Below, piece by piece: positions 43,669-64,000 of a DNA stretch of 64,000 nt. Numbering within the stretch: position 1 is the first letter of the stretch; the number at the start of each line of letters is the position of its first letter. A program made the position numbers and the translations under genes. The DNA comes from a virus. Where the stretch lies: the IMG/VR virus record IMGVR_UViG_3300025849_000009; one strand, 5' to 3'. Under the pieces are notes generated by a model. That model was given only the letters and a program-made list of their open reading frames with translations. It did no database searches and was not told where the DNA came from.

Positions 43669-44601
43669 TTATCTTCTTTTGAATCTAGATTCATCTGAAG
43701 CAATCGTTGTATTAATATCCTCTTCTATATAAGCGTCAATTATTTTTTTAGTTTTATCTGAAATATCTTCTCCGTAATAGTCTTTATACATTTCTTTATA
43801 TACATGTCCCATAACACCAAATACTGGTCCAGGTTCTGATGACATTTCAATAACATAAGGATGATCTTTATCATCTATAACAATATCTACTGAATAAAAA
43901 TCTAAATCATTGTGTTCTTTTGAAAATTCTTCAACAACACCAACTAAATTTTCTGTTATAGGTGATTTTGATAATTCGTAATTAAATACTAGTTTATCAT
44001 CCGCTTTTTTAGATAGGTTTTTTGTTTCTTCGTTTGCAGGCACTCTATATACTAACATCAAAGGTTTTCCTTTCCAACAATAAATTCTAAGTTCATTTAC
44101 GATATTTATCTTTTCTGAGAAAACTGAAAACTGATCTAAATCAACGCCTTCTAAATCTTTTTCTTCTTTAAAAACCATAATACCTTGGCCACTATATCTG
44201 TTATCTGGTTTAGCTATAATAGGATATTTAAGTTCTTTTAAATTTGATTTATCAAAAACTACTTTAGGCGTATGTTTAGATTTTTCATGAGTCTTGCACC
44301 ATTTTACTTTAGAAGAAACTCTTTGTTTAGCTTCAATTGAATTATAAATAAATTTAGAATCCCATCCATCATTTATCATTTTCTCAATTTTCCAATTAGC
44401 ATAATTAAGAACTGGAATTTCAGAAGGTTCTGCTTTTTTATTTTTATCTAATAATTCAAATACCTTTGAGACATTATATTTAGAATCATACACATATTTA
44501 TTATCTGGCATTTCTACAGAAACCGCGATGCAGATTTTTTTAAGTTGATCAGTTTCATCAGCTTCTAAAAGAAAATCTTTAAATGTGTATATACTTCTCA
44601 T
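43669..44601 (-). CDS. ATP-grasp ligase (RimK-like) with CTS-like leader
   Basis: 'YPIIAKP...SGQGI', 'ELRIY', 'DFYSVDI......YVIEMSSEPG'; leader MRSIYTFKDFLLEA. Confidence 0.75.
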   Translation of the reverse strand: MRSIYTFKDFLLEADETDQLKKICIAVSVEMPDNKYVYDSKYNVSKVFELLDKNKKAEPSEIPVLNYANWKIEKMINDGWDSKFIYNSIEAKQRVSSKVKWCKTHEKSKHTPKVVFDKSNLKELKYPIIAKPDNRYSGQGIMVFKEEKDLEGVDLDQFSVFSEKINIVNELRIYCWKGKPLMLVYRVPANEETKNLSKKADDKLVFNYELSKSPITENLVGVVEEFSKEHNDLDFYSVDIVIDDKDHPYVIEMSSEPGPVFGVMGHVYKEMYKDYYGEDISDKTKKIIDAYIEEDINTTIASDESRFKRR

Positions 44602-44612
44602 CTAATATATAT

Positions 44613-45041
44613 CTACGAAGGAAATACTTCTATCGTTCTTTCTTCTCTAACTAGGTCTGCCCATTTACCTTCATATCTTGTACCCTTAACAATATGGTTG
44701 TCAACCCAATGATAATTACCACCTCTTGGTTTTCCCATTAATAGTCCATGATATTTAAAACCATGTTTATTTAGCCAATTTTCTGTAATCTCTCTTACGT
44801 CTTCAGTTCTTGAAGTAAAGAAAGTTACAACATGTCCTTCGTCATACCATCTATTAAGTGTTTCTACAGATCCTTCATATGGTAAAACTATTGACATTCT
44901 TTCTGGCTCTTCGTTTGGTACATCATCTGTAATTGTACCGTCAATATCAATTAAATAATTCTTAGCACCATTCTTTAAAACGGGTGATACTAAATGCCCA
45001 TCATCTCCAACGATCTCGTTAAATGTAATCTCTTTTTTCAT
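44613..45041 (-). CDS. HAD-superfamily phosphatase
   Basis: 'IDIDGTI', 'FFTSR', 'TENWL..HGFKYHGLLMGKP'. Confidence 0.8.
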   Translation of the reverse strand: MKKEITFNEIVGDDGHLVSPVLKNGAKNYLIDIDGTITDDVPNEEPERMSIVLPYEGSVETLNRWYDEGHVVTFFTSRTEDVREITENWLNKHGFKYHGLLMGKPRGGNYHWVDNHIVKGTRYEGKWADLVREERTIEVFPS

Positions 45042-45056
45042 ATTGTTTTTTATTAA

Positions 45057-46388
45057 TTATTTCTTTCTCATAAATGATACATTAATGTATCTTTTCCCAC
45101 TGTGTATTGGTCTGGCACCATGTTTATGTGTAATCATTCCTGGGTGAATGGTTGCAGTGCCCACTAATTTTGGATTTGATAATATTTTATATTTTGGAAA
45201 CCATGTACCGCCTCCATCAAACTCATCGTTTAATTTTACTACCATTGTAATATGACTAAAGTCGTGATGTAAACTTAAATGAGATTGTCTATCAGTAGTG
45301 TATCTTACCATAAAGTTTTCAGTATCCATATTGTCCCAACCTGCACCTTCTAATTCCCATAAATGTATACAAAGAGGAGAAACTATTTCTCTTACAACTC
45401 TATTATAAATATGATCTAATCCTATTTCTGGTAATAAGACATCGTTTGTTGGATAAAATTCGTGTCTGTCTTTTGTCCATTTATCCATAACTTCTGCCAA
45501 ACCTACGGCTTCTTTACAGAATTTTTCTGTAAATAATGGAAACTCATAAATATTATTTCCTATATCATCTACCATTAAATCATATTCACCCTTAGATACC
45601 GTTTCGTTTACATATTTTGATTTCCATGAATCCCAATCACTATCATCTAATATTTCGAAATATGGTTGTGTTTTCAATAAATTAATATTCGCATCATATG
45701 GTTCTGTCATAGATTGTTCATGCGGTCTATTTTGTTCTATCCAATTATCAACTGGAGCTATCGCTTTAAGTTTTGGTGGAAACAGTATATTAATATCTTG
45801 TCTTCTATGCTCTGTATATGTTGCTGTTAAGAATTCGTCGGGTGCAATTAGATTTTGTTTAAAGTTATAATCATTGACTAGTATTTTTGCAGTGTCTCTT
45901 TTAATTACATACGCGTGTGTATTATAACTACTAAGAGCTGTTACCCATTTATTACTTGCATCAATTCTTTTTTCATCCTTAGAACATATAGCATTTCTAC
46001 CTAAAAATGCAATATCCCATTCTGTATTTGGAATAACTGGATTTGTAAGCGGAGCTACTGAAACAAAATCATCTTCTAATATTAATGCACAATTGACATT
46101 GTTTTCTATTATATTGTTCCATATACTTAAGTGGCTAATTGCACAACCTGCTTCTCCACCAGTAACATCTCTTTTCCACCAATCATTCCATGAATCAGAT
46201 CCTAAATTCCATAAATCATATACACTATGTCCATCTAATAAATTACCTGAAGTTCCATCAAAACCTTGAACTATTTCCCATTCTACAGAATATGGCATAC
46301 CAAGTTGATCTACCCTGGTGGCAATGTTTCTCTGAATACTTGGATCTCCGGCATTCAAACTTATAATATAAATTTTATCTATTTTCAT
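45057..46388 (-). CDS. GT25 (procollagen galactosyltransferase-like) fused to PLOD-like 2OG-Fe(II) lysyl hydroxylase
   Basis: GT25 part: 'IYIISL', 'FDG', 'GEAGCAISH..IW', 'LILEDD', 'DEFL'. Oxygenase part: 'PTND', 'NFMVRY...Q..L.LHHD.S', 'GGGT.F', 'HPG.ITH.H......G.RYI.VSF'. Likely start M9. Confidence 0.85.
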   Translation of the reverse strand: MKIDKIYIISLNAGDPSIQRNIATRVDQLGMPYSVEWEIVQGFDGTSGNLLDGHSVYDLWNLGSDSWNDWWKRDVTGGEAGCAISHLSIWNNIIENNVNCALILEDDFVSVAPLTNPVIPNTEWDIAFLGRNAICSKDEKRIDASNKWVTALSSYNTHAYVIKRDTAKILVNDYNFKQNLIAPDEFLTATYTEHRRQDINILFPPKLKAIAPVDNWIEQNRPHEQSMTEPYDANINLLKTQPYFEILDDSDWDSWKSKYVNETVSKGEYDLMVDDIGNNIYEFPLFTEKFCKEAVGLAEVMDKWTKDRHEFYPTNDVLLPEIGLDHIYNRVVREIVSPLCIHLWELEGAGWDNMDTENFMVRYTTDRQSHLSLHHDFSHITMVVKLNDEFDGGGTWFPKYKILSNPKLVGTATIHPGMITHKHGARPIHSGKRYINVSFMRKK

Positions 46389-47404
46389 ATAGATTCTAAT
46401 ATGTTTTTCCAATCATATGATCTGGCATTCCATGTTTGTTGTTTAGACCATTTATAAGCATCATTAATTGATTTATCTTTAAGTCCACTACTTAGTGTAC
46501 CTAGTATTTGTATAACCTGATTCCAATTTGTTTCATTTCTTTCTAAGATAACTCCACTATTTACAGTCTCTTTTAATGCTGCTACCGTGGTAACAATAGG
46601 TAATACTTTGGCATATTGCATTTCAAGCGCAGTAATACAATATGTTTCTTCATAATCAGTTACATAGCACCAATATTCTGCACGTAACATTGCAGCGTGT
46701 AATGTTTCTTGATCTACTGTACCATGACACGTAACTTCTTCAAACTTATTAAATGAATAGTCAGTATGATTTGCTATAGAATAGCCTGGAGAATATATGT
46801 CTAATGTTGCATGTGGCATTATATCTTTTATCTTTGGCCAGTTTTTTAATAATTCTAATAAGCCACGTTCAGGTGCAGAACTATATATGAATTTACCTTT
46901 TATTTTTTCAGGAGTACCATTAAATGTCGAAGGATCAATGGCATTACCAATCACTGAGATTTTATTTAAAGGTATATTATATGTGTGTGCCCAATGATTC
47001 TTATGCCAGTTAGTCAAACAAATTGTATGATCAACTTGTTGTGTTAAAATGTTTGCGTCTCCTAACACTTTATGATTCCACCATGGGTGATGATGTGTAT
47101 TATGTGCCCAAAATACTTTCTTTGCTGAATACCCTTCAAACTCTTTTAGAAAATGGATATAACTTGCAGATATAATATAATCAAACTGATCAAAATATTT
47201 TTCATGAACAGTATGTGTTGATATCCATTCTACACCATCAATTAAACCAGAATCTTTTACTTCACCAGAAACCACAACCTTATAACCAAATTTAACTATC
47301 TCTTTAGCTATATTAATTATAGCAATTTCAGTTCCTGCTAATCCAATACTGGTATTGCTATCAAATTTGTTTTTTTGATAACCCGCATAAAATAATATTC
47401 TCAT
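46385..47404 (-). CDS. GT-B glycosyltransferase (GT4-like)
   Basis: 'GLAGTE', 'YSSAPERGL..LL', 'YEETYCITALE' (E-x7-E). Confidence 0.85.
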   Translation of the reverse strand: MRILFYAGYQKNKFDSNTSIGLAGTEIAIINIAKEIVKFGYKVVVSGEVKDSGLIDGVEWISTHTVHEKYFDQFDYIISASYIHFLKEFEGYSAKKVFWAHNTHHHPWWNHKVLGDANILTQQVDHTICLTNWHKNHWAHTYNIPLNKISVIGNAIDPSTFNGTPEKIKGKFIYSSAPERGLLELLKNWPKIKDIMPHATLDIYSPGYSIANHTDYSFNKFEEVTCHGTVDQETLHAAMLRAEYWCYVTDYEETYCITALEMQYAKVLPIVTTVAALKETVNSGVILERNETNWNQVIQILGTLSSGLKDKSINDAYKWSKQQTWNARSYDWKNILESI

Positions 47405-47452: not shown

Positions 47453-48364
47453 TTAGTTCTTATTTCTTTTAACTTTAGGTGGAGCGTCTATAAACCAACC
47501 CTTATAATATTCTCTTTTTTCATAGATATAATTCATGTAATCATCCACTTTGCCCTTCCAATCTTCATCAATTGCTGGATTTATAATTCCAGATTTGTAA
47601 CTAGAAAAAACCTGATTAATCCATTCTGCACCGCTTTCTTTATTATCATAAAGACTAGAGTTTATAGTATAAAAAGATCCTCTGCTTATATTATTCCACA
47701 CATCCATTGGATAAACTTCTTTTTCAAGAACAACAGAATATAATGCACTTTCACTAATGTGTGTACTATATACTGTTTTAGCTTTTTGTAAAAAGTAATA
47801 AAGATCTATGTCTCTTGGTAAAATAGATTCTTCACCAAATAAATCTTTAATTTCACCTATAACTGCATGTGTAGTAATAGGATGTGGTTTAAAATAAACA
47901 TCACCTTTATGTTTCTCAGCAACTTCAATTAATTTATTTAAACAACAATTTTCTTTAAGCTTATTTGAACCTGGTAAAATAACCAAAGTGCTTTTATCTT
48001 CATATCTGTCGAAATCTTTCTTGCGATTTTGATATTTATTAGCTTGATCTTTTTCGATATTTTCTTTAAAGTAAGATACCCAATCATAGACGTGTTCGAC
48101 ATCATGTACTAAAGCATCAGCAATTTGTTCTCTTCTCATTTTGAGATTTAGTGGTTGCATTAAAAAACAAGTAGCATATTCTGTATATCCCATTGTTTTA
48201 AAGTACGGCATTTCTTCTGCTATAACATCATAACTGTGTTCTAATCCAAGTTCTCTACATTTTCTTAAAACATATCGTTCCACTTGTTCGAGTGGTTCTA
48301 GTTTTGTATTTTTCTTTAGAGGCCCAATTCTTTCATTTAGCACCTTTTTGTTAAACATTTCCAT
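47453..48364 (-). CDS. Putative GT-B glycosyltransferase (KpsS/sialyltransferase-like HP motif)
   Basis: 'LVILPG', 'VYFKPHP', 'V.STH.SESALY..L.K.V'. Confidence 0.55.
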   Translation of the reverse strand: MEMFNKKVLNERIGPLKKNTKLEPLEQVERYVLRKCRELGLEHSYDVIAEEMPYFKTMGYTEYATCFLMQPLNLKMRREQIADALVHDVEHVYDWVSYFKENIEKDQANKYQNRKKDFDRYEDKSTLVILPGSNKLKENCCLNKLIEVAEKHKGDVYFKPHPITTHAVIGEIKDLFGEESILPRDIDLYYFLQKAKTVYSTHISESALYSVVLEKEVYPMDVWNNISRGSFYTINSSLYDNKESGAEWINQVFSSYKSGIINPAIDEDWKGKVDDYMNYIYEKREYYKGWFIDAPPKVKRNKN

Positions 48365-48487: not shown

Positions 48488-51310
48488 CTAGTTACCATTA
48501 TAACTGTTTACTCTCCATTGTCTATTTGTATTATAAACATCTAGTGGTTCGTTAGTTGAATACCAAGTTTCTTGTACTTCGTAATCTGTACTCCACGTTG
48601 TAGTAATAGCACTTGTTGTAGATCTCGTTGTGTTCCACGTTGTTGTTGTGTTCCATGTGGTATTCCACGAAGTAGTAACACTATAGATAGTTGACCATAT
48701 AGTCGTTGTCGATTTAGATGTCGCTGCATTTGTATTAAATGTAGTCGTAGTTGATCTAGTCGTATTAAATGTGGTCGTAGTCGAGTGGCTTGTATTAAAT
48801 GTAGTCGTAGTCGTTTTAGACGTTGTTTGAGACGTATTAAATGTTGTCACCCATGATGTAGTCCATGAAGTTGTCGTTGACTGATTAGTATTAAACGTTG
48901 TCAACCAAGTTGTATTAAATGTAGTTATAGTTGACTTACTAGTTTGATATTGTGTAGTCCACGATGTTGTACGTGTATAGTTTGTAATTCTACTAGTTTC
49001 CCAAGTTGTTGTCCATGCAGTTGTCGTCGCATGTTCTGTTCCCCTATTAGTTCCTCTGGATGTACTCCATATAGTTACTGTCGAATGAGACGTTCCATGA
49101 TTCGTAGACTGGGACGTATTAAACGTAGTCGTAGTTGAATGCTCTGTTGACCTAGTTGTATTCCATGAAGTAGTCCATGAAGTATTGAACGTAGTTACTG
49201 TAGATTTACTTGTTGACCATGTTGTTGTAAACGTAGTCGTTGTTGAATGTTCTGTTCCTCTAGTCGTGTTCCATGAAGTTGTCCATGATGTATTGTAAAC
49301 TGTAGTCGTTGCTCTAGTCGTATTCCATGATGTGTTAAAAACTGTAGTAGTCACATGCTCTGTTCCTCTAGTCGTGTTCCATGAAGTTGTCCATGAGGTA
49401 GTATAACTCGTCGTCGTAGCTCTACTAGTTGACCATGTTGTATTAAATGTAGTTGTTGTAGATTTAGTCGTTGACTGATTAGTATTAAACGTCGTTGTCC
49501 ATGAGGTAGTATAACTCGTCGTCGTAGCTCTACTAGTTGACCACGTTGTATTAAATGTAGTTGTTGTAGATTTAGTCGTTGACTGATTAGTATTAAACGT
49601 TGTCACCCACGAAGTAGTCCACGAAGTTAACGTTGTTTTAGTTGTGTTCCATGTTGTGTTATAAACCGTAGTAGTTGACCTAGAAGTTGACTGATTTGTA
49701 TTAAAAGTAGTAGTCGTTGTTCTAGAAGTAGATCTCTTTGTATTTCGCGATGTTATCCAAGTAGTATTAAATGTTGTCGTAGTCGATTTGCTAGTTGACC
49801 ACGCTGTATTGTAAACTGTTGTTGTGGTTTTATTCGTGCCTCTGGTTGTGTTCCATGAGGTAGTCCACGAAGTAGTCCACGAAGTTAGCGTTGATTTAGT
49901 TGTGTTCCATGATGTGTTATAAACCGTAGTAGTTGACCTAGAAGTTGACTGACTTGTATTAAATGTTGTCGTAGTCGATTTACTAGTTGATCTAGTTGTA
50001 TTTCTTGATGTTGACCAGGTTGTCGTAAATGTTGTCGTAGTCGATTTACTTGTTGACTGGCTTGTATTAAAAGTTGTAGTTGTAGATTTATTAGTTCCTC
50101 TACTAGTTCCTCTTACGGTGTTCCATGAAGTTGTCCATGTAGTTACAGTGGATTTGCTAGTTGACTGACTTGTATTAAAAGTTGTCGTTGTTGCTCTAGT
50201 TGTGTTCCATGTCGTTGTAGTAGATTTACTAGTTGACCATGTTGTAGTCCAATTAGTTGTAGTAGATTTACTAGTTATAAACGTCGTTGTAGTAGATTTA
50301 CTAGTTGCAAATGTAGTAGTAGTTGAATGTTCCGTTGATCTACTAGTTATAAATGTTGTTGTAGTAGATTTAGACGTATTAAACGTAGTCGTTGTCGATT
50401 TACTAGTTGCCCATGTAGTCGTGGTTGCACGCGTTGTATTCCTATGAGTTGCAAATGTAGTTGTAGTAGATTTAGACGTATTAAACGTAGTCGTTGTTGA
50501 TTTACTAGTTGCCCACGTAGTCGTGGTTGCACGCTCCGTTGACTGACTTGTACTAAATGTAGTCGTTGTTGATTTACTAGTTGCCCATGTAGTCGTGGTT
50601 GCACGCGTTGTATTCCAAGATGTATTATATACAGTCGTTGTTGTTTTAGTTGTGTTCCACGTCGTTGTAGTTGCGCGTGATGTATTCCATGTAGTCGTGG
50701 TTGCACGCTCCGTTGACTGACTTGTACTAAATGTGGTCGTGGTTGCACGTGTTGTATTAAATGTTGTTGTGGTTGCACGTGTTGTATTCCACGAAGTAGT
50801 CCACGAAGTTAGCGTTGATTTAGTTGTATTGAACGTCGTCGTCGTAGCTCTAGTTGTATTCCAAGATGTATTGTATACGGTCGTGGTTGCACGCGTTGTG
50901 TTATACGTAGTCGTGGTTGCACGTGTTGTATTAAATGTTGTTGTTGTCGCCCTAGATGTAGATTGACTTGTATTCCACGACGTCGTAGTCGCCTTAGACG
51001 TATTCCACGTCGTCGTAGTCGCCCTAGACGTATTCCACGTCGTCGTAGTCGTCTTAGATGTACTCTTACTTGTATTATATGTCGTCGTCGTATTTTTATC
51101 TGTGAACCATGACGTCGTAACTTTAGTTGACCACCCCGTTGAAGTAGATTTATCTGTAAGTACATTCCAATAGGTAGTTTTTGCCGTATTCCTAGAAGTT
51201 GCCCTATTATATGACGTGTATAATGAAGTTGTTCGAGAATAACTAGTCGTCTTCAACGTGCTCCTAGATCCGGCGGTTAACCAAGTAGTATTAAAAAAAG
51301 TAGTAGGCAT
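48488..51310 (-). CDS. Thr/Ser-repeat fibre protein A (940 aa); antiparallel complement of protein B
   Basis: Quasi-repeat units of 10/14/18/22 aa (e.g. TTTTFNTSKS), each with aromatics first and K/R/Q/H after. Confidence 0.85.
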   Translation of the reverse strand: MPTTFFNTTWLTAGSRSTLKTTSYSRTTSLYTSYNRATSRNTAKTTYWNVLTDKSTSTGWSTKVTTSWFTDKNTTTTYNTSKSTSKTTTTTWNTSRATTTTWNTSKATTTSWNTSQSTSRATTTTFNTTRATTTTYNTTRATTTVYNTSWNTTRATTTTFNTTKSTLTSWTTSWNTTRATTTTFNTTRATTTTFSTSQSTERATTTTWNTSRATTTTWNTTKTTTTVYNTSWNTTRATTTTWATSKSTTTTFSTSQSTERATTTTWATSKSTTTTFNTSKSTTTTFATHRNTTRATTTTWATSKSTTTTFNTSKSTTTTFITSRSTEHSTTTTFATSKSTTTTFITSKSTTTNWTTTWSTSKSTTTTWNTTRATTTTFNTSQSTSKSTVTTWTTSWNTVRGTSRGTNKSTTTTFNTSQSTSKSTTTTFTTTWSTSRNTTRSTSKSTTTTFNTSQSTSRSTTTVYNTSWNTTKSTLTSWTTSWTTSWNTTRGTNKTTTTVYNTAWSTSKSTTTTFNTTWITSRNTKRSTSRTTTTTFNTNQSTSRSTTTVYNTTWNTTKTTLTSWTTSWVTTFNTNQSTTKSTTTTFNTTWSTSRATTTSYTTSWTTTFNTNQSTTKSTTTTFNTTWSTSRATTTSYTTSWTTSWNTTRGTEHVTTTVFNTSWNTTRATTTVYNTSWTTSWNTTRGTEHSTTTTFTTTWSTSKSTVTTFNTSWTTSWNTTRSTEHSTTTTFNTSQSTNHGTSHSTVTIWSTSRGTNRGTEHATTTAWTTTWETSRITNYTRTTSWTTQYQTSKSTITTFNTTWLTTFNTNQSTTTSWTTSWVTTFNTSQTTSKTTTTTFNTSHSTTTTFNTTRSTTTTFNTNAATSKSTTTIWSTIYSVTTSWNTTWNTTTTWNTTRSTTSAITTTWSTDYEVQETWYSTNEPLDVYNTNRQWRVNSYNGN

Positions 51311-51385
51311 TCTCTATCTCTGTTGTTTTTTTATATATTTAAATTCTTTAATCATTTTATTTCTTAAAAAGTCTCTTAGTACTAC

Positions 51386-54300
51386 TTACCAAGCACAATC
51401 ACGCTCAGAATAACATATAGAACGAAAATCGCAATAATCTTCTGGACTACACAGTTGTTCTTTGTTATTATGTGTTAAAATTCCATTTGCAAAGAATGTA
51501 TCATTAGGTTCTACATCTAATTTATAAACAGTATATTGATTAACTTCATCTATTTCTAAAGATTCTATCAGAAATTCTCCATAATCCATTTTAAACATAA
51601 CATCACCAATCTCTAGGTGCTCCGCTAGTTTTGCTTGCCACATACCATCTCTTTTTATAATATGTATATGTGCCATGGTAGTTCTTAATTGGTCATTATT
51701 TATGCTAACTGTTCCTATAACGTCTGCTCTCCAAATACCGGAAACATTATGTTCATTAGATAATGTATTTGTGTATACTTCTTCTTCCCTAATTGTTGGT
51801 AATACAGTCATGTCATCTGTATTAAATGCTCCATCCATAGTTAAAATACTCTGGCCATGCACTAACGTTTCAACTGGTCTTTGTATTCCTTCAGCAATAT
51901 GTACTAGTGTTCCTTCAACTATACATTCCTCTATTGTGCTTCTAGATGTTCCACGAGATGTGTTGACATACAATGCTGTATTGTAACTTGTGATATATGA
52001 AACTGATGTATTCCAGGAAGTTATTTGCCCTGCACCACCACCTGAACTATTATCTGCAGGAACTAAAGTAATCCATGTTGTTGTTTTAGTTGTTGATCTA
52101 GAATATCCTGTAGAAACCTTTGTAATAGTTGACTTACTTGTATTTCTGTCAGTTACCCTAGAAGTTGCAAACCTAGTATTAGTAGATTTACTAGTTGCAA
52201 AAGTGGTCGTGTACGTCGTTGTCGTCGATCTACTAGTTGCAAATGTCGTTGTCGTCGATCTACTAGTTGCAAATGTTGTTGTTGTATTTCTACTAGTGAT
52301 CCAGTAAGTTGTCCATGCAGTTGTCGTCGATTTACTAGTTGACCAAGTTGTTGTTGTCGATCTACTAGTTGCAAATGTCGTTGTCGTCGTATGCTCTGTG
52401 CTTCTACTAGTACTAAATGTAGTCGTTGTAGATCTACTAGTTGCAAATGTTGTTGTTGTATTTCTACTAGTTCCTCGAGTCGTACCAAAAGTGGTCGTTG
52501 TTGATTTAGTTGTGTTGAACGTCGTCGTTGTTGACCTAGTTGTATTCCAAGATGTATTGTATACAGTCGTGGTTGCACGCGTTGTGTTCCAATTAGTTGT
52601 AGTAGATTTACTAGTAGCAAATGTTGTTGTGGTAGAATGCTCTGTGCCTCTACTAGTACTAAATGTAGTCGTTGTTGATTTAGTTGTGTTCCACGTCGTC
52701 GTCGTAGCTCTAGTTGTATTCCAAGATGTATTGAACACTGTAGTTGTAGACTGACTTGTATTCCATGTAGTCGTTGTTGATCTAGTTGTATTGTATACGG
52801 TCGTTGTTGATCTAGTTGTATTCCATGTTGTTTTAAATGTAGTCGTTGTAGACTGACTTGTATTCCATGTAGTCGTTGTTGATCTAGTTGTATTATATAC
52901 GGTCGTTGTTGATTTAGTTGTATTCCAAGATGTATTGTATACAGTCGTTGTTGCTCTAGTTGTGTTCCACGTCGTCGTTGTTGATCTAGTTGTGTTCCAT
53001 CGTGTTGTTGTTGACTTACTAGTAGACTGATTTGTGTTAAATGTTGTTGTCGTCGATTTACTAGTAGCAAATGTTGTTGTGGTAGATTTACTAGTTGACC
53101 ATGTTGTATTAAACGTAGTCGTTGTGTTTTTGGACGTTGATTTGGAAGTCAACACAGTTGTGTTCCATGAAGTTGTCCATGAAGTTGTAGTAGCTCTACT
53201 AGTTGACCACGTTGTATTAAATGTAGTTGTTGTAGATTTAGTCGTTGACTGACTTGTATTAAAGGTTGTACCAAATGTGGTTGTCCATGTAGTTGTCGTC
53301 GATTTACTAGTTGACCATGTTGTATTAAACGTAGTTGTTGTCGCATGCTCTGTGCTTCTACTAGTTACAAATGTTGTTGTTGTATTTCTACTAGTTGCTC
53401 TATTAGTTCCTCGACTTGTTACCCAAGTAGTTGTCCATGCAGTTGTTGTGGTGTGCGAAGTTGATTGACTAGTATTAAACGTAGTTGTTGTAGAACGATT
53501 CGTTGATCTAGTTGTATTCCATGAAGTAGTCCAAGCTGTGTCAAAAGTAGTAGTTGTAGATTTACTTGTTGACCATGTTGTTGTAAACGTAGTCGTTGTC
53601 GAATGTTCTGTTCCTCTACTTGTTACCCATGTTGTTGTGGTATTTTTACTAGTCGCCTTAGACGTTGATTTACTAGTAGACCAAGTTGTTGTCCATGTAG
53701 TTACTGTAGATTTACTTGTTGACTGACTTGTATTAAAAGTCGTTGTCGTAGATTTAGTAGTTGACCTAGAAGTTGACTTACTAGTTGACCAAGTTGTCGT
53801 AAATGTTGTTGTTGTTGATTTACTTGTTGACTGACTTGTATTAAAAGTTGTAGTTGTCGATTTACTAGTTACTTTACTTGTTGTTTGACTAGTGATCCAA
53901 GTTGTATTATATGTCGTTGTTGTCGAACGAGATGTTGATTGACTAGTACTAAACCTGGTCGTTGTTGAATGTTCAGTGCTTCTAGAAGTTATCTGAGATG
54001 TAATCCAAGTTGTATTATATGTAGTCGTTGTTGATCTAGATGTCGACTGATTTGTGTTAAATGTTGTTGTAGTACTACGATTAGTAGATCTTGTTGTCGT
54101 TTGACTAGTGATCCACGTTGTATTATACACTGTTGTTGTAGATCTATTAGTTGACCATGACGTTGTATATGTCGTAATATAAGAAGTTGTCGTTGATTTA
54201 CTTGTATTCCAAGAAGTTGTCCAATATGTAGTGTATGATGTAGTTGTACTTCTAGATGTGGATTGACTTGTGTTCCAGGTTGTTTCAACAGGATACAATG

Positions 54301-54736
54301 TGGATTGACTAGTTGTCCAACTAGTTGTCCATGTAGTAGTTGTAGCCCTCTCAGTTGATTGTGACGTGTTTTTAGAAGTCGACCATGTTGTTGTTGTAGT
54401 TCTATCAGTTTCTAAAGATGTTTCTCTAGAAGTGCTCCATGATGTAGTCCACGATGTTGTCGTTGATCTAGAAGTTGCATATACAGTATTAGTACTACGA
54501 GATGTATTGAAAGTTGTTGTTGTCGATTTACTAGTTGCCCATGTAGTGATCCATGTTGTCACCGTGGATTGACTAGTATTTCGTACTTTGTTAGTAGTTC
54601 TCGAAGTATTTCTATTTTCAGATGTAGTTTTGGAAGTAGCCCAAGTAGTATTCTTAGCTACGAGTGTACCCTTAGATGTATTCTGTGCACTTCCGGTACT
54701 CCAAAAGTCGATTCTTGAAAATCCTATATTCTTCAT
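51386..54736 (-). CDS. Thr/Ser-repeat fibre protein B (1116 aa) with C-terminal Hint domain and Cys-rich tail
   Basis: Same repeat grammar as A with unit order reversed; Hint at aa 938-1090. Confidence 0.85.
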   Translation of the reverse strand: MKNIGFSRIDFWSTGSAQNTSKGTLVAKNTTWATSKTTSENRNTSRTTNKVRNTSQSTVTTWITTWATSKSTTTTFNTSRSTNTVYATSRSTTTSWTTSWSTSRETSLETDRTTTTTWSTSKNTSQSTERATTTTWTTSWTTSQSTLYPVETTWNTSQSTSRSTTTSYTTYWTTSWNTSKSTTTSYITTYTTSWSTNRSTTTVYNTTWITSQTTTRSTNRSTTTTFNTNQSTSRSTTTTYNTTWITSQITSRSTEHSTTTRFSTSQSTSRSTTTTYNTTWITSQTTSKVTSKSTTTTFNTSQSTSKSTTTTFTTTWSTSKSTSRSTTKSTTTTFNTSQSTSKSTVTTWTTTWSTSKSTSKATSKNTTTTWVTSRGTEHSTTTTFTTTWSTSKSTTTTFDTAWTTSWNTTRSTNRSTTTTFNTSQSTSHTTTTAWTTTWVTSRGTNRATSRNTTTTFVTSRSTEHATTTTFNTTWSTSKSTTTTWTTTFGTTFNTSQSTTKSTTTTFNTTWSTSRATTTSWTTSWNTTVLTSKSTSKNTTTTFNTTWSTSKSTTTTFATSKSTTTTFNTNQSTSKSTTTRWNTTRSTTTTWNTTRATTTVYNTSWNTTKSTTTVYNTTRSTTTTWNTSQSTTTTFKTTWNTTRSTTTVYNTTRSTTTTWNTSQSTTTVFNTSWNTTRATTTTWNTTKSTTTTFSTSRGTEHSTTTTFATSKSTTTNWNTTRATTTVYNTSWNTTRSTTTTFNTTKSTTTTFGTTRGTSRNTTTTFATSRSTTTTFSTSRSTEHTTTTTFATSRSTTTTWSTSKSTTTAWTTYWITSRNTTTTFATSRSTTTTFATSRSTTTTYTTTFATSKSTNTRFATSRVTDRNTSKSTITKVSTGYSRSTTKTTTWITLVPADNSSGGGAGQITSWNTSVSYITSYNTALYVNTSRGTSRSTIEECIVEGTLVHIAEGIQRPVETLVHGQSILTMDGAFNTDDMTVLPTIREEEVYTNTLSNEHNVSGIWRADVIGTVSINNDQLRTTMAHIHIIKRDGMWQAKLAEHLEIGDVMFKMDYGEFLIESLEIDEVNQYTVYKLDVEPNDTFFANGILTHNNKEQLCSPEDYCDFRSICYSERDCAW
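51467..51925 (-). other. Hint (intein-like/BIL) autoprocessing domain
   Basis: Block A 'CIVEGTLV', block B 'TTMAH', block F/G 'VYKLDVEPNDTFFANGILTHN'; the +1 residue is Asn, not C/S/T. Confidence 0.85.
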
Positions 54737-54761: not shown

Positions 54762-57485
54762 TTACGCAAAATTTCCAATGTAGTTAACTAATACTGCGTC
54801 AACATCTATTATAATATATGATATAATAGATACTGCACCAGGAGTAGTTACCCATTGAATGTCAGCACCTGAGGGTGTTTTCATATAGGATGGTAATGCA
54901 TTGTATCCTGCACCTACACCATTATAGATTACTATAGTTCCAGATTGACCTACGTTGTCGTTACCTATGTTAGACATTGTAATATCAATTGATCCCGTTG
55001 CTGTAAATGCAAATGCGTCACCTTGATCAGGCTTAATGTCATAAACACCTCCAACACCGTTAACCGATATAATATCTCTTTTTAAAGCACCTGTTAAATA
55101 TAAATCATGATGCTCAACATTTGAATCTGTTTTTGTATGTTGATCCATTGCAGTTGCATAGGTATTAGAAGTACCAGTATTACCTTTTAAACCTGAAGAA
55201 CCTGAAGAACCACTTGATCCAGAAGATCCGTTAGTTCCATCAGTTCCTGAAGAACCTGAAGTTCCGTTTGTTCCTGAAGTTCCATTCGTTCCTGAAGTTC
55301 CATTCGTTCCTGAAGTTCCATTCGTTCCTGAAGAACCACTAGATCCACTTGAACCTGAAGTTCCGTTTGTTCCACTAGTTCCATCAGTTCCTGAAGAACC
55401 TGAAGTTCCGTTAGTTCCACTTGTACCGTCAGTTCCTGAACTTCCACTTGAACCTGAAGATCCGCTTGTACCATTCGTTCCACTTGTACCATTTGTACCA
55501 GACGTTCCATCAGTTCCTGAACTTCCACTTGATCCACTTGATCCTGAAGTTCCATCGGTTCCTGAAGTTCCGTTAGTTCCTGAAGTTCCATCAGTTCCTG
55601 AACTTCCACTTGAACCTGAACTTCCATCAGTTCCTGAAGAACCTGAACTTCCATTTGTTCCATTAGTCCCTGAAGAACCAGCTGGTCCTTGAATAGAACC
55701 GCCTCCAATCCAACCATCTGCTTGTGTAAATACCCAAAGAGAATCGTCTGATTGTACTATATATGCATCACCGTCAGAATTACCGCTTGTTGGTAAATTT
55801 GATGATGTAGCTACTTGTCCTTGCATTGAAACACCCCAACCTGGATTACCTTGTGCACCTGAAGATCCACTTGATCCAGAAGATCCACTAGAACCATCCG
55901 TTCCTGAAGAACCCGAACTTCCGTTTGTTCCATTCGTTCCACTTGTACCATTGATACCACTAGTTCCATCAGTTCCTGAACTTCCGTTTGTTCCACTTGT
56001 ACCGTCAGTTCCTGAAGAACCTGAACTTCCATTAGTTCCTGAAGTTCCATTCGTTCCTGAAGTTCCATTTGTTCCTGAAGTTCCATCAGTTCCTGAACTT
56101 CCACTTGAACCTGAAGATCCACTTGATCCGTTAGTTCCTGATGTTCCATTCGTTCCTGAAGTTCCATCAGTTCCTGAACTTCCATCAGTTCCTGAGCTTC
56201 CACTTGATCCGTCAGTTCCTGAAGTTCCATTCGTTCCTGAAGTTCCATCAGTTCCTGAAGTTCCATCAGTTCCTGAAGAACCGCTTGAACCCGAACTTCC
56301 ATTTGTTCCATCAGTTCCTGAACTTCCATTTGTTCCTGAAGTTCCATCAGTACCGCTTGTACCTGGAGCTCCTTTTTGTCCTTTAACACCGCTCGATCCA
56401 GAAGATCCGTTAGTTCCATTAATTGCTGGAGTTCCAGGAGCACCTTTAGCTCCGGTTGCACCAACGGGAATAGTAAAATCAAATTCAGCTGCAGTTGAGG
56501 TTCCAGTATTAGTAACACTTACTGGTGTATTTTCTAATCCAGTAGATACTGTTCCTACTGCAATTGTACCTGTAATTCCTGAAGATCCGCTTGAACCTGA
56601 ACTTCCGCTTGATCCATCAGTTCCTGATGTTCCAACATATACTACTCTACCTACAATTTCATTGCCATTTTGAGAATGAGTTAATATTAAATTATTTCCA
56701 GATAAAGTTGCTCCACTATAATTGTCACCTTTAACACCATCAACTCCACTTGTTCCATCCGTTCCTGAAGATCCACTAGAACCATCCGTTCCTGAAGTTC
56801 CGTTAGTTCCACTAGTACCATCAGTTCCTGAACTTCCACTTGATCCACTTGATCCTGAAGTTCCATCGGTTCCTGAAGTTCCGTTAGTTCCTGAACTTCC
56901 ACTTGAACCGTTTGTTCCCGAAGAACCTGAAGTCCCACTTACACCACTCGTTCCATCAGTTCCTGAACTTCCACTTGATCCATTTGATCCCGAGGTTCCT
57001 GATGTTCCAACATCACCAATAGGTTGAATAAACATAAATAAAGAATCATTATCACTAACATTATTCCAATTAGAACTTGAAATAGGTTGTAAGTTAAATG
57101 TTCTTTGTCCAGAAGCAGTTGTGTTTCCTGTTACATAGAATGATTTATTTGCATTACCATCAGTTGATTTTGCTAATACAATAATAGACTTATAACTATT
57201 AGATGAAGCGACTGCAGCATTTAATGTTACGGTTGCTGAACCACCTCTAGCATTAGTTTCACTTACAATTATTTTACTAGGATTACTAGGATTATCAAAC
57301 GCTAAATCACCAGAAGAAACTGTCGTGGGATTTGTTGCGTTATTATAAACATAAGGAAGTCCAAACGTATTTGGTAATTGTTGGTTTTCATACTTTCCGG
57401 TACTTGCATTATATGACAATACTTCACCAGTAGATGGAGAAGAAGATAAAAAGTCAAGTATTTGTTTTAATTTCAATTGAGACAT
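54762..57485 (-). CDS. Collagen-like fibre (Pro-poor G-T/S-X triplets) with interspersed knob domains
   Basis: Long GTS/GTD/GTN/GSS triplet tracts; knobs 'TIAVGTVSTG..VSVTNTGT..A.FDFTIP' and 'QGQVATSSNLP.SGN.DGDAYIV'. Confidence 0.85.
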   Translation of the reverse strand: MSQLKLKQILDFLSSSPSTGEVLSYNASTGKYENQQLPNTFGLPYVYNNATNPTTVSSGDLAFDNPSNPSKIIVSETNARGGSATVTLNAAVASSNSYKSIIVLAKSTDGNANKSFYVTGNTTASGQRTFNLQPISSSNWNNVSDNDSLFMFIQPIGDVGTSGTSGSNGSSGSSGTDGTSGVSGTSGSSGTNGSSGSSGTNGTSGTDGTSGSSGSSGSSGTDGTSGTNGTSGTDGSSGSSGTDGTSGVDGVKGDNYSGATLSGNNLILTHSQNGNEIVGRVVYVGTSGTDGSSGSSGSSGSSGITGTIAVGTVSTGLENTPVSVTNTGTSTAAEFDFTIPVGATGAKGAPGTPAINGTNGSSGSSGVKGQKGAPGTSGTDGTSGTNGSSGTDGTNGSSGSSGSSGTDGTSGTDGTSGTNGTSGTDGSSGSSGTDGSSGTDGTSGTNGTSGTNGSSGSSGSSGSSGTDGTSGTNGTSGTNGTSGTNGSSGSSGTDGTSGTNGSSGTDGTSGINGTSGTNGTNGSSGSSGTDGSSGSSGSSGSSGAQGNPGWGVSMQGQVATSSNLPTSGNSDGDAYIVQSDDSLWVFTQADGWIGGGSIQGPAGSSGTNGTNGSSGSSGTDGSSGSSGSSGTDGTSGTNGTSGTDGTSGSSGSSGSSGTDGTSGTNGTSGTNGTSGSSGSSGSSGTDGTSGTNGTSGSSGTDGTSGTNGTSGSSGSSGSSGTNGTSGTNGTSGTNGTSGTNGTSGSSGTDGTNGSSGSSGSSGSSGLKGNTGTSNTYATAMDQHTKTDSNVEHHDLYLTGALKRDIISVNGVGGVYDIKPDQGDAFAFTATGSIDITMSNIGNDNVGQSGTIVIYNGVGAGYNALPSYMKTPSGADIQWVTTPGAVSIISYIIIDVDAVLVNYIGNFA

Positions 57486-57571: not shown

Positions 57572-58177
57572 TTATTTTTTATTAGTTAATAATGACATAA
57601 AATTAAGATGTTGTTTTAATATATCTAATTTTGAGTCATTGTTTGTTGTTTTATACCAGTTCCACGGTGTTGAATTTAATATATTTTCTTGTTTATTTTT
57701 TAGTTTTAATATACTTTCTTCTATAGATCTAATTTGATCATATGCCGAAGAAGGTAATTCTATTTCTAATTTAATTGCACATGTTATTAAACTTGCCCAA
57801 TCTTCAGTTTCATTGGCATCTACCAAATCCTCATATATCTTTTTATATTTATCTTTTTTATCATGTGAAATGTCATGTGTTAATTTATCAGGGTGACACT
57901 TTATGACCGATTTTCTAAATAATTTTTTAAAATCTGGGTGTTTATTAGTTTCTTTTTCTAAATCTTCCTCTTCTTTCTTACTATTTGCCCATGAATCAGC
58001 AGCATTTTCCATTTCTTCAGATTCTAATATACCATCATTATCAATTTCTGAAAGTTCTTGCATAAATTTATTTTTTATTTCAGAATTAGCAGTTTTTATA
58101 TCTTCTAAATCTTCTAATAAAAATTCATACTCTCTAATTAATCTTTTAAAAATTATTTTGTTAGGATCAATAGACAT
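57572..58177 (-). CDS. Coiled-coil protein with internal J domain
   Basis: 'FKKLFRKSVIKCHPDKL' HPD motif. Confidence 0.75.
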   Translation of the reverse strand: MSIDPNKIIFKRLIREYEFLLEDLEDIKTANSEIKNKFMQELSEIDNDGILESEEMENAADSWANSKKEEEDLEKETNKHPDFKKLFRKSVIKCHPDKLTHDISHDKKDKYKKIYEDLVDANETEDWASLITCAIKLEIELPSSAYDQIRSIEESILKLKNKQENILNSTPWNWYKTTNNDSKLDILKQHLNFMSLLTNKK

Positions 58178-58180
58178 ATA

Positions 58181-59392
58181 TTACTTATATAGATTTGTTT
58201 TCCAATCATATGTAGATCTTAGTTTATGATCCTTAATTCCCATTGTGGTTTCAATTAATTGTTTATATGTTTCTATTAAACCCTCGTTAAATACAGTATA
58301 TCTAGTTAAAACCCTTTCGCTATTTTCATTATATGCTTCTATGTTATTGTCATGATTTTCGATAGCCTGTTTAAGTTGTCGAGAACCCTGTCCAATTAAG
58401 TTACCATCATAATAATATCCGGCGTCCTTAATCATGTGTGCGTTATGTACTAGTGGAAACTGTAAATAGAGTGCGTCTAAGTATGAATAATTTAATGGAT
58501 TAGTATGTTGGTGTGCAATAACTACATCTGTTAATTGGGCCATAGCATCAATAGCTCTTAGTCTAGGGAGGTATGATAATTTATGATCTGTTGTTCCAGA
58601 TAATTTACATAATGAAAGGTGTGTTAATAAAGATTGATAATATTTGTTTTTTATAATGTCTTCACCACACATGATATTTAGTTTTTTAAATTTACCTCCT
58701 TTATTATAATAATCTTCTGCTATCAATAAATTTATAAAGTGCCATTTTTGTGTGCCAATATTGGGTTCAAAACATGCAATTTGTTTGTCTTTATTTTCTT
58801 TTCCAGGAACATACACTGGAACTGGTCTGTTTTCAATTATTGTCTTTGGATTATTATACACTTCACATGTTTTGTCTAAAAATACAGGATCCCATACAAA
58901 AGGAACGGGTCTTACTTTATTTACTGGTAAATTATGCATTACTCTATAATATTCAATATTATTTTCGCCCTGTTGTGGAACATACCACGCTTCGTCCAAT
59001 AATTGATTATATCCGGTAGCATCAGGTCCAATATTAAACATAGCACCCTCTAAATCATTCAGATAATTATTACCACAAATATATTTGACTACTTTTTTAC
59101 CATAACCTGTTTTCTTAAACTCCTCTATAGTTTTATCGCCGTAAGTTGCACCCAACCAAATCATAAGATCTGTATCTGCATACTTGTCATAGTAATCGTA
59201 TATTGGGAATTGTTCAATATCCCATGTTACTTTGTTCTCATAAGGAGCTTTGACTTCACTTGCATTTAATATGTATACATTATATCCTATTTCTTTCAAA
59301 GCTTTTAATAAATAAAGCGCATTTAGTTTTATACCATTTATCCAAAGACTTTCATTCTCTGATCCTAAACTTATAGTAATTCCTATATTCAT
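58181..59392 (-). CDS. DUF2827-like putative glycosyltransferase
   Basis: 'IGITI....SLW.NGI..N', 'CGNNY', 'VPFVWDP.FL', 'FEPNI...K', 'HQHTNPLNY.Y.DALY..FPLVHN'. Confidence 0.75.
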   Translation of the reverse strand: MNIGITISLGSENESLWINGIKLNALYLLKALKEIGYNVYILNASEVKAPYENKVTWDIEQFPIYDYYDKYADTDLMIWLGATYGDKTIEEFKKTGYGKKVVKYICGNNYLNDLEGAMFNIGPDATGYNQLLDEAWYVPQQGENNIEYYRVMHNLPVNKVRPVPFVWDPVFLDKTCEVYNNPKTIIENRPVPVYVPGKENKDKQIACFEPNIGTQKWHFINLLIAEDYYNKGGKFKKLNIMCGEDIIKNKYYQSLLTHLSLCKLSGTTDHKLSYLPRLRAIDAMAQLTDVVIAHQHTNPLNYSYLDALYLQFPLVHNAHMIKDAGYYYDGNLIGQGSRQLKQAIENHDNNIEAYNENSERVLTRYTVFNEGLIETYKQLIETTMGIKDHKLRSTYDWKTNLYK

Positions 59393-62796: not shown

Positions 62797-64000
62797 TTAA
62801 AATTTAAATATTATAAATGCGTGAGCTTCTTTAGTTGTTTGACCGAATCCACCAGCATTTCTTACTGCATCGATATTACCCATACCTAAATCTAATTTAA
62901 TTTTAGCTGCACTAAAGTTAGTGAATAAATCAGTTGTAACTTGATTACCAATACTAAAACTAGATGAGTGCGCAGATTCTGTAATACCCTGTGCATAGAA
63001 TGATGCGTTGTTACCACCACCGTCTAAATGTGTTATAACATATCTTGAATTGTTGGCTTGATATGCATATACAAGGATTGCTTTCGGTGGTTGATTTTGA
63101 CCACTGAATGAAAATTCTTGATTATCACCAGCACGTGTTCCTATAGATGCGTTAGATGTTTCAAATACACCTGATCCACTTGGATCGATAAATTCACACC
63201 CACCTAAAGCTTGCGATGCAGTGTATTCTGCTCTTACACAATAATAAGTTCCACCTGATCCAGTTGCAACGTCTGACCATTCAACTGCGTAATCAACATT
63301 TGAAGATTTAACAAGTGCTTGACCCGTTGTTCCTCCTCCTGCAATTCCAGATCCATTTGCTCCAGCTGCTCCTTCCGGCCCCTGTGGTCCTTCCGGTCCT
63401 TGCGGTCCGGTGGCTCCATTAGCTCCGTCAACTCCATCAATACCTGAAGTTCCGGCGTCACCTTGATCACCTTTAACTCCATTGATTCCAGATGTTCCAT
63501 TAACTCCTGAAGTTCCATTTGTTCCTGAAGTTCCGGCGTCACCTTGATCACCTTTAGCTCCATCAACTCCTGAAGTTCCATCAACTCCTGATGTTCCATC
63601 GTTTCCATCAACTCCTGAAGTTCCATTTGTTCCTGAAGAACCATCTGTTCCTGAAGTTCCAGCGTCACCTTGATCACCTTTAGCTCCGTCAACTCCTGAA
63701 GTTCCATCGTTTCCATCAACTCCTGAAGTTCCATTAACTCCTGAAGTTCCATTTGTTCCTGAAGTTCCAGCGTCACCTTGATCACCTTTAGCTCCATCAA
63801 TTCCAGATGTTCCGTCAACTCCTGAAGTTCCAGCATCACCTTGATCACCTTTAGCTCCATTAATTCCTGAAGTTCCAGCGTCACCTTGATCACCTTTAGC
63901 TCCATCAACTCCTGAAGTTCCATTTGTTCCTGAAGTTCCAGAAAGTCCTGAAGTTCCGTCGCTTCCGTCAACTCCATCAATACCTGAAGTTCCATCAACT
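62797..64000 (-). CDS. Collagen-like fibre, C-terminal part (starts beyond window)
   Basis: Frame reads ...VDGTSGIDG...GAKGDQGDAGTSG...GPQGPEG, then a globular C-domain ending AHAFIIFKF* (stop 62797-62799); not in ORF track. Confidence 0.85.
   Translation of the reverse strand, partial: VDGTSGIDGVDGSDGTSGLSGTSGTNGTSGVDGAKGDQGDAGTSGINGAKGDQGDAGTSGVDGTSGIDGAKGDQGDAGTSGTNGTSGVNGTSGVDGNDGTSGVDGAKGDQGDAGTSGTDGSSGTNGTSGVDGNDGTSGVDGTSGVDGAKGDQGDAGTSGTNGTSGVNGTSGINGVKGDQGDAGTSGIDGVDGANGATGPQGPEGPQGPEGAAGANGSGIAGGGTTGQALVKSSNVDYAVEWSDVATGSGGTYYCVRAEYTASQALGGCEFIDPSGSGVFETSNASIGTRAGDNQEFSFSGQNQPPKAILVYAYQANNSRYVITHLDGGGNNASFYAQGITESAHSSSFSIGNQVTTDLFTNFSAAKIKLDLGMGNIDAVRNAGGFGQTTKEAHAFIIFKF

Follow-up and report, generated by a model that had tools for sequence, protein, structure and literature searches.

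A predicted GT25-lysyl hydroxylase fusion enzyme encoded near collagen-like fiber genes of an uncultured large marine phage

The glycosylation of hydroxylysine is regarded as a hallmark of animal collagen that only one virus, mimivirus, shares. Does a tailed phage carry the same chemistry, packed into a single enzyme? This question is raised by a gene at positions 45057 to 46388 of IMG/VR virus record IMGVR_UViG_3300025849_000009, of which we analyzed a stretch of 64,000 nucleotides (the window). An initial annotation, made from the sequence alone, had proposed that this gene fuses a COLGALT-like glycosyltransferase (GT) domain of family GT25 to a PLOD-like lysyl hydroxylase (LH) domain, and that one bifunctional enzyme decorates the collagen-like fibers of the phage. 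Fiber decoration is proposed because the fusion joins relatives of both enzymes that animals and mimivirus use on collagen lysine. In the literature searched, hydroxylation and glycosylation of collagen lysine were found described for animals and giant viruses only, and the search returned no LH-GT25 enzyme and no hydroxylysine described for tailed phages; in 2010, Iyer and colleagues predicted a role for dioxygenases of bacteria and phages in modifying collagen-like and tail-collar proteins.

Our preferred reading, to which we assign a probability of roughly 75%, is that the gene product is a compact bifunctional enzyme modifying the phage's own collagen-like fibers, with a GT4-type enzyme as its partner. 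The fusion protein would act in the cytoplasm of the infected cell on the collagen-like fiber proteins of the phage: its C-terminal 2-oxoglutarate (2OG)/Fe(II) domain would convert the Y-position lysine of Gly-X-Lys-Gly to 5-hydroxylysine, and its N-terminal, inverting GT25 domain would transfer a hexose from a uridine diphosphate (UDP)-sugar to the hydroxylysine hydroxyl, as in mimivirus L230. The gene and its parts, as delimited by the open reading frame (ORF), Pfam, AlphaFold2 (AF2) models searched with Foldseek, and profiles, are as follows.

45057..46388, minus strand: GT25-lysyl hydroxylase fusion gene, 443 amino acids (aa) plus stop codon (ORF and translation).
45726..46388, minus strand: GT25 (COLGALT-type GT-A) domain, residues 1 to 221 (Pfam, AF2/Foldseek, profile).
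45642..45725, minus strand: predicted mobile lid and interdomain linker, residues 222 to 249, including S226-x-T228-E229.
45060..45641, minus strand: lysyl hydroxylase (2OG/Fe(II) double-stranded beta-helix) domain, residues 250 to 443.

That 45057..46388 encodes a real, strongly conserved two-domain protein is confirmed. Its ATG start is in line with the N termini (M-K/N-I/L-D-K-I-Y) of 23 homologues, and an alternative TTG eight codons 5' of this ATG would run into the preceding gene. The mean column identity in the family alignment of fusion homologues (alignment A1) is 61%. The motifs named in the initial annotation, ENFMVRYTTDRQSHLSLHHDFSH and IHPGMITHKHGARPIHSGKRYINVSF, are found in the translation. 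In a sequence search of the PDB, residues 253 to 440 matched the LH domain of L230 (6ax6; E = 2e-28) and human LH3 (E = 9e-23), and residues 33 to 198 matched human COLGALT1 (E = 5e-9); a bacterial GT25 reached E = 0.017 and prolyl 4-hydroxylases no better than E = 0.59. These matches give the GT25-like N terminus and the PLOD-like C terminus that had been proposed. The protein opens directly with the GT25 domain, and no noncatalytic N-terminal GT domain of the COLGALT1 kind was found by Pfam or in alignment A1. GenBank phages gave no match when searched by megablast with 10 kb of the window, and the fusion gene is not on the nearest record, a 24 kb fragment (G001).

The LH domain is 41% identical to mimivirus L230 (P0404; BLASTP, E = 4e-32). 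The full-length family alignment had given a predicted local distance difference test score (pLDDT) below 50 for this domain; an AF2 model made with diverse LH-only sequences reached a pLDDT of 93.7. This model superposes on L230 (6ax6) with a template modeling (TM) score of 0.82 to 0.87, a root mean square deviation (rmsd) of 1.7 Å, and E = 8e-20, and on human LH3 with a TM score of 0.84 to 0.86, the L230 and LH3 matches together spanning E = 1e-20 to 1e-17. In contrast, the remaining 2OG oxygenases, prolyl hydroxylases included, stay at about E = 1e-6 and TM 0.4 to 0.6, an E-value gap of 13 orders. H374-x-D376 and H423 align with the Fe triad of L230 and LH3 (their HHD and H motifs), and R433 aligns with their 2OG-binding Arg (R-Y-I motif); all four residues are invariant in alignments A1 and A3 and are predicted to be the Fe triad and 2OG-binding Arg of this enzyme. 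L230 activity needs an Fe-stabilized tail-to-tail dimer (L873; Guo et al. 2018). Since the domain matches L230 and LH3 far better than prolyl hydroxylases, both by sequence and by modeled fold, the assignment of residues 250 to 443 as a collagen-type LH domain is confirmed at this level, its activity being predicted.

For the N-terminal domain, affinity was judged by relative profile and fold scores. Pfam GT25 (PF01755) covers residues 4 to 108 of the fusion (E = 1.2e-15), and the GT25 part of the AF2 model, made with the full-length family alignment, has a pLDDT of about 90. Its best Foldseek match is the catalytic (C-terminal) domain of COLGALT1 (9evk; E = 1e-14; rmsd of 3.1 Å over 235 columns), compared with E = 7e-8 and an rmsd of 10 Å for a bacterial GT25 beta-1,4-galactosyltransferase. 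A profile of the window's domain and eleven stand-alone relatives scored COLGALT1 at 119 bits (E = 1e-33, covering all 222 positions), the bacterial GT25 8xlz at 42 bits, and mimivirus R655 at 33 bits; identity to the GT25 domain of L230 is 30%. By profile and modeled fold, residues 1 to 221 are a GT25 domain much closer to human COLGALT1 than to the solved bacterial GT25, and the COLGALT-like label holds up. The initial annotation had also named grouping with lipopolysaccharide (LPS) GT25s and generic prolyl hydroxylases as the outcome that would speak against it; both domains instead side with collagen-modifying enzymes.

Within the GT25 domain, E105-D106-D107 map to E435-D436-D437 of COLGALT1, D184 to D522, and E185 to E523. 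In a ternary-complex study of COLGALT1, E435-D436-D437 contact the ribose and Mn, D522 is the catalytic base, and D436/D437 and D522/E523 were shown to be essential (PMC12987934). In the window family, E105, D107, D184, and E185 do not vary among the phage, bacterial, and L230-type members aligned, and D106 is nearly invariant; E105-D106-D107 is the predicted UDP/Mn motif and D184 the predicted catalytic base. The D184-E185 pair was considered as a marker specific for hydroxylysine, E523 anchoring the epsilon-amino group in COLGALT1, and was rejected because the bacterial enzyme 8xlz also has D-E. Residues 223 to 241, between the two domains, have a pLDDT below 50. Here, S226 is nearly invariant across the aligned GT25-LH-type proteins and sits just past the position equivalent to H560 of COLGALT1, at which the lid loop of the human enzyme starts. 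S226-M-T228-E resembles the COLGALT1 lid S569-D-T571-E, in which S569-x-T571 contacts the pyrophosphate (PMC12987934), a tentative match made by eye in a shorter loop and a low-confidence segment.

If the two domains act on collagen-like fibers, candidate substrates should carry lysine at the Y position, and two such proteins are encoded in the window.

54762..57485, minus strand: collagen-like fiber protein, candidate substrate, 907 aa, five X-Lys-Gly sites, mostly GTS/GSS triplets.
62797..64000, minus strand: collagen-like fiber protein, candidate substrate, N terminus cut by the window end, six G(A/V)KGDQGDAG repeats.

The X-Lys-Gly sites are encoded nearby as claimed, five in 54762..57485 (GVKG twice, GAKG, GQKG, and GLKG) and six G(A/V)KGDQG in 62797..63999 (GAKGDQG five times, GVKGDQG once). 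Among the long-run triplets of the two proteins (163 and 71), lysine occupies Y four and six times, respectively, and X never. Collagen-like ORFs also lie upstream on the same strand in 11 of the 14 related IMG/VR loci in which the relative is full length and the upstream DNA spans 5 kb or more. We compared lysine positions between 15 nonredundant LH-linked loci (2,921 triplets) and 47 control viral collagen loci (3,809 triplets) picked by a GG-N7 pattern scan. Lysine is at Y in 18.7% of LH-linked triplets versus 4.5% of control triplets and at X in 0.7% versus 1.4%, giving Y:X ratios of 27:1 and 3:1 (Fisher odds ratio, Y against X, 8.5). The per-locus median fraction of Y-position lysine is 17.2% versus 2.2% (Mann-Whitney p = 1.6e-5); p-values are optimistic and independence is overstated, since one syntenic phage lineage supplies most of the LH-linked loci. 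In the controls (L041 to L120), Gly-Asp/Glu comes directly after 72% of the Y-position lysines, which fits a salt-bridge role in these viral collagens; the figure is 23% in LH-linked loci, where this rule is relaxed.

The same bias is seen in the cultured phages S-CAM9 and CRP-6, which are independent lineages: the Y:X counts of lysine in their annotated tail-fiber collagens are 22:0 and 26:0. On a contig binned as Flavobacteriaceae, the collagen counts are 58:5. A search for LH on the contigs of control collagens rich in Y-position lysine gave 0 matches, in six fragmentary records (10 to 63% complete) only. In S-CAM9, two 2OG-Fe(II) oxygenase genes of the prolyl 4-hydroxylase type lie between the collagen-like tail-fiber gene and the gene for its GT25-GT_PLOD-LH protein (L005, 10767-11932), and the tail-fiber gene encodes 31 Pro at X; this hints that the S-CAM9 tail fiber may be prolyl-hydroxylated as well.

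Beyond the overstated independence of the LH-linked loci, several observations weigh against modification of the collagen-like fibers: (i) the window collagens have 10 Y-position lysines in 234 long-run triplets (~11 X-Lys-Gly sites in all), about the control frequency; (ii) all 10 of these stand in a K-G-D/A/N context, and K-G-D can stabilize triple helices without modification; (iii) some relatives are not beside collagen genes, namely L014/L015, L026, the split genes of L030/L032, and the LH-only genes of Thiotrichaceae; and (iv) the acceptor cleft of the GT25 domain differs from that of COLGALT1. In COLGALT1, Y494-W495 and K470 hold hydroxylysine-glycine (PMC12987934). Here, N156 takes the place of W495 (family members have N or C in this column) and N132 that of K470, with Y155 (Y494) kept. 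As L230 and S-CAM9 retain the Y-W pair at this position, the GT25 acceptor pocket of the window protein is remodeled.

Given that the window collagens are poor in lysine and the adjoining threonine-rich proteins rich in it, an active LH domain might find its main substrates among noncollagen virion proteins, for example the T-S-K-S-T lysines of two threonine-rich fibers (48488..54736), in the way that LH2 and L230 act on telopeptide X-Lys-Ser/Ala. Telopeptidyl lysyl hydroxylase activity has been ascribed to L230 (PMC9546862), and the Gly-gating residue K470 of COLGALT1 is not kept here. However, the threonine-rich fiber genes occur only in the closest relatives (L001 to L003), and the enzyme is kept where they are missing and collagen-like genes are present. 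Being limited in this way, the threonine-rich fibers are hardly the conserved substrate, and we regard this explanation as unlikely.

The targets could also be split, the LH domain acting on lysine and the remodeled GT25 domain, with the GT4 enzyme, O-glycosylating Thr/Ser of the GTS/GSS triplets or of other fibers. The replacement of both W495 and K470 in the hydroxylysine cleft would fit such a change, as would the dominance of Thr/Ser in the window collagens and the several additional glycosyltransferase-like genes that surround the fiber genes. Against this, the GT25-LH fusion recurs in several architectures and matches L230, whose GT uses the product of its LH, and the catalytic base and its neighboring residues are conserved with L230 and COLGALT1; a split of targets therefore seems distinctly improbable. 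Modification of host LPS or another glycan during infection, with the collagen link a mere resemblance, is highly improbable: the Pfam family is named "LPS biosynthesis protein," JGI labels homologues LPS glycosyltransferases (the GenBank phage homologues are labeled "hypothetical protein"), and the D-E pair of 8xlz makes this pair nonspecific for hydroxylysine, but the profile score of COLGALT1 is nearly threefold that of the bacterial GT25 8xlz, the rmsd is 3 Å versus 10 Å, the domain does not side with stand-alone bacterial LPS/lipooligosaccharide GT25s (Lic2A/LgtB type), and the gene is fused to a collagen-type LH and lies among fiber and other phage genes, not LPS genes.

Modification of the phage's own collagen-like fibers thus remains our preferred reading, and it includes a partner encoded next to the fusion gene.

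46385..47404, minus strand: GT4-like (GT-B) glycosyltransferase (Pfam Glyco_transf_4 and Glycos_transf_1, with matches reaching the threshold or falling slightly short of it).
44613..45041, minus strand: HAD-family phosphatase (Pfam LNS2/HAD), a downstream syntenic neighbor with a putative pathway role.

The TGA of the GT4-like gene overlaps the ATG of the fusion gene as ATGA, and most of the related loci checked have a GT4-like gene directly 5' of the fusion. The encoded protein shares 33% identity with the N-terminal domain of a GT4-GT25-LH protein (P0130; E = 2e-47). As GT4 is fused to GT25-LH in many relatives (a Rosetta stone), a third pathway step is predicted, and 46385..47404 probably encodes the second sugar transferase of the pathway. 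GT25 enzymes are inverting and GT4 enzymes retaining in the CAZy classification. The translationally coupled GT4-like enzyme would then probably add a second sugar, and the product would be a hydroxylysine-linked disaccharide whose inverting-then-retaining logic resembles that of the animal Glc(alpha1-2)Gal(beta1-O)Hyl, in which Hyl is hydroxylysine. The claim of one bifunctional collagen-modifying enzyme stands as a prediction, with the domain order of L230 and linked collagens carrying lysine at Y; it is probably incomplete, as the conserved GT4 enzyme is likely to supply this third step.

Other genes accompany the fusion. The HAD phosphatase gene lies directly 3' of it in nearly all related loci, with 54 to 97% identity, often above that of the fusion itself; in several loci, the phosphatase is 83 to 94% identical where the fusion is only 46 to 75% identical. 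An ATP-grasp (R2K-like) gene at 43669-44601 trails the fusion together with the phosphatase in nearly all related loci. Several more glycosyltransferase-like genes occur around the fiber genes. Also among the fiber genes are those for a full-length DUF2827 protein (58181-59392; E = 2e-77), a weak DnaJ-like protein (57572-58177), and a protein with a faint polysialyltransferase-like match (47453-48364), which may be further fiber-modifying or fiber-folding factors. The threonine-rich repeat protein at 51386-54736 has a Hint/intein-like segment (CIVEG...THNN) in its C-terminal part.

How widespread is this enzyme? A clustered database contains 364 full-length 90%-identity clusters of fusion homologues at E ≤ 1e-5, far more than chance would give. 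The best 120 of the 364 are all full length, with 51 to 93% identity and 431 to 474 aa. The clusters lie on metagenomic contigs no longer than about 250 kb, bar one (P0068), a full-length member whose longest contig is 104 Mb from NCBI; this would be a eukaryote-sized assembly, contaminated or with a transferred copy. An exhaustive search of the representatives gave 2,340 matches at E ≤ 1e-3. Among relatives, the modules are reshuffled into GT25-LH, GT4-GT25-LH (739 to 858 aa), GT4-LH with separate GT25 genes (L033), and GT25-GT_PLOD-LH (L230-like proteins, S-CAM9, and CRP-6). A chromosomal protein of the bacterium Aureibacter tunicatorum (P0144, WP_309939162.1) has a peptidase C39-GT25-LH architecture, suggestive of a connection with peptides that are exported or processed.

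Several relatives stand in other settings. Thiotrichaceae metagenome-assembled genomes (MAGs), including a 1 Mb Thiolinea contig, carry stand-alone LH-type genes 46 to 51% identical to the window LH (L161 to L165), and no collagen-like ORF was found in the flanking DNA examined (up to about 10 kb per side). In two IMG/VR contigs (L030 and L032), GT25 and LH are encoded by two genes that overlap, several small ORFs come next, and no collagen-like gene lies within 10 kb. Two MAG contigs binned as Flavobacteriaceae (L159, 24 kb, and L160, 10 kb) encode full-length relatives with 57% and 41% identity, respectively. As L159 has collagen-like fiber ORFs, it looks like phage DNA, a weak hint at a Flavobacteriaceae host group.

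In a tree of LH domains, the animal PLODs are monophyletic (support 100) inside an L230-like clade (support 98). The window protein falls in a separate group of 44 rows (support 89), in which GT25-LH, GT4-GT25-LH, GT4-LH, and LH-only forms are intermixed; being quick and unrooted, the tree gives no transfer direction and nothing firm on the origin of collagen modification. A bolder idea, which we offer tentatively and would not call likely, is that a large, old, modular toolkit for modifying collagen lysine exists in tailed phages and some bacteria, that it combines LH with a GT25 of the inverting kind and a further GT (GT4 or PLOD-GT), and that it served as the source pool for L230 and metazoan PLOD/COLGALT. 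The window family would then be a minimal cytoplasmic pathway to a hydroxylysine disaccharide, with a GT-B enzyme replacing the animal GT-A glucosyltransferase.

If the preferred reading is true, the chemistry would be common in the bacterial virosphere, given the 364 clusters and the many GT4-fused and PLOD-GT-fused variants, and sugar-decorated hydroxylysines on phage fibers could alter adsorption or stability. Small enzymes of this kind, probably compatible with Escherichia coli, could aid in making recombinant collagen that is hydroxylated and glycosylated, which has been named as a bottleneck (PMC9546862). In addition, the family provides many outgroup sequences for work on the origin of PLOD and COLGALT.

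The closest characterized enzyme is L230 (895 aa), which likewise joins a GT25-type N terminus and an LH C terminus in one chain. Its N-terminal GT (residues 1 to 194), 27.7% identical to GLT25D1 and with a putative E106-D107-D108 motif, transfers glucose to hydroxylysine, its C-terminal domain is the LH, and the protein both hydroxylates and glucosylates collagen lysine (PMC9614988); it is functional on coexpression in E. coli (PMC9614988, PMC9546862). By BLASTP, residues 3 to 187 of the window protein match L230 residues 2 to 190, and residues 270 to 440 match 714 to 894. The E-D-D motif stands at 106 to 108 in L230 and at 105 to 107 here, and both enzymes are virus-encoded alongside collagen-like proteins with lysine at Y. 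In contrast to L230, the window protein is half the size, with a linker of ~30 residues in place of the central PLOD-GT and accessory domains (Pfam GT_PLOD is present in P0191, S-CAM9, and CRP-6 and absent from the window fusion). It also has Y-N where L230 has the Y-W acceptor pair, its source is a tailed phage, it has a GT4 enzyme as its partner, and its LH domain falls outside the L230/PLOD clade of the LH tree.

With human LH3/PLOD3 and COLGALT1/GLT25D1, the window protein shares the two catalytic families and the same Fe/2OG, UDP/Mn, and catalytic-base residues, and the human target, X-Lys-Gly with lysine at Y, is the same motif as in the candidate substrates of the window. However, the human enzymes are two separate, complexed proteins, the window enzyme is one chain, and the second sugar is added by the GT-A domain of PLOD in humans and by a predicted GT-B (GT4) enzyme here. 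The extra N-terminal GT domain, W495, and K470 of COLGALT1 are all missing in the window protein.

Other phages offer closer parallels in setting. N161109_031 of Synechococcus phage S-CAM9 (613 aa) and gp58 of Roseobacter phage CRP-6 (589 aa), each named "hypothetical protein," are tailed-phage enzymes that combine GT25 and LH as here, and their genes directly follow collagen-like tail-fiber genes with lysine only at Y. They differ in having kept a GT domain of the PLOD type, and their identity to the window protein is only about 28%; their LH domains pair together (support 100) outside the 44-row group, and midpoint rooting places them, with weak support, on the side of PLOD and L230. The GT4-GT25-LH proteins of uncultured phages (for example, P0127, 739 aa, and P0130, 814 aa) are 38 to 47% identical to the window protein over the full length of their GT25-LH part. 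Their N-terminal GT4 domain is homologous to the product of the gene upstream of the window fusion, so that what is one chain there is a separate, ATGA-coupled gene here. Taken together, these comparisons support the window protein, from an uncultured large marine phage, as a compact phage-type variant of the L230/PLOD-COLGALT system, a well-founded prediction.

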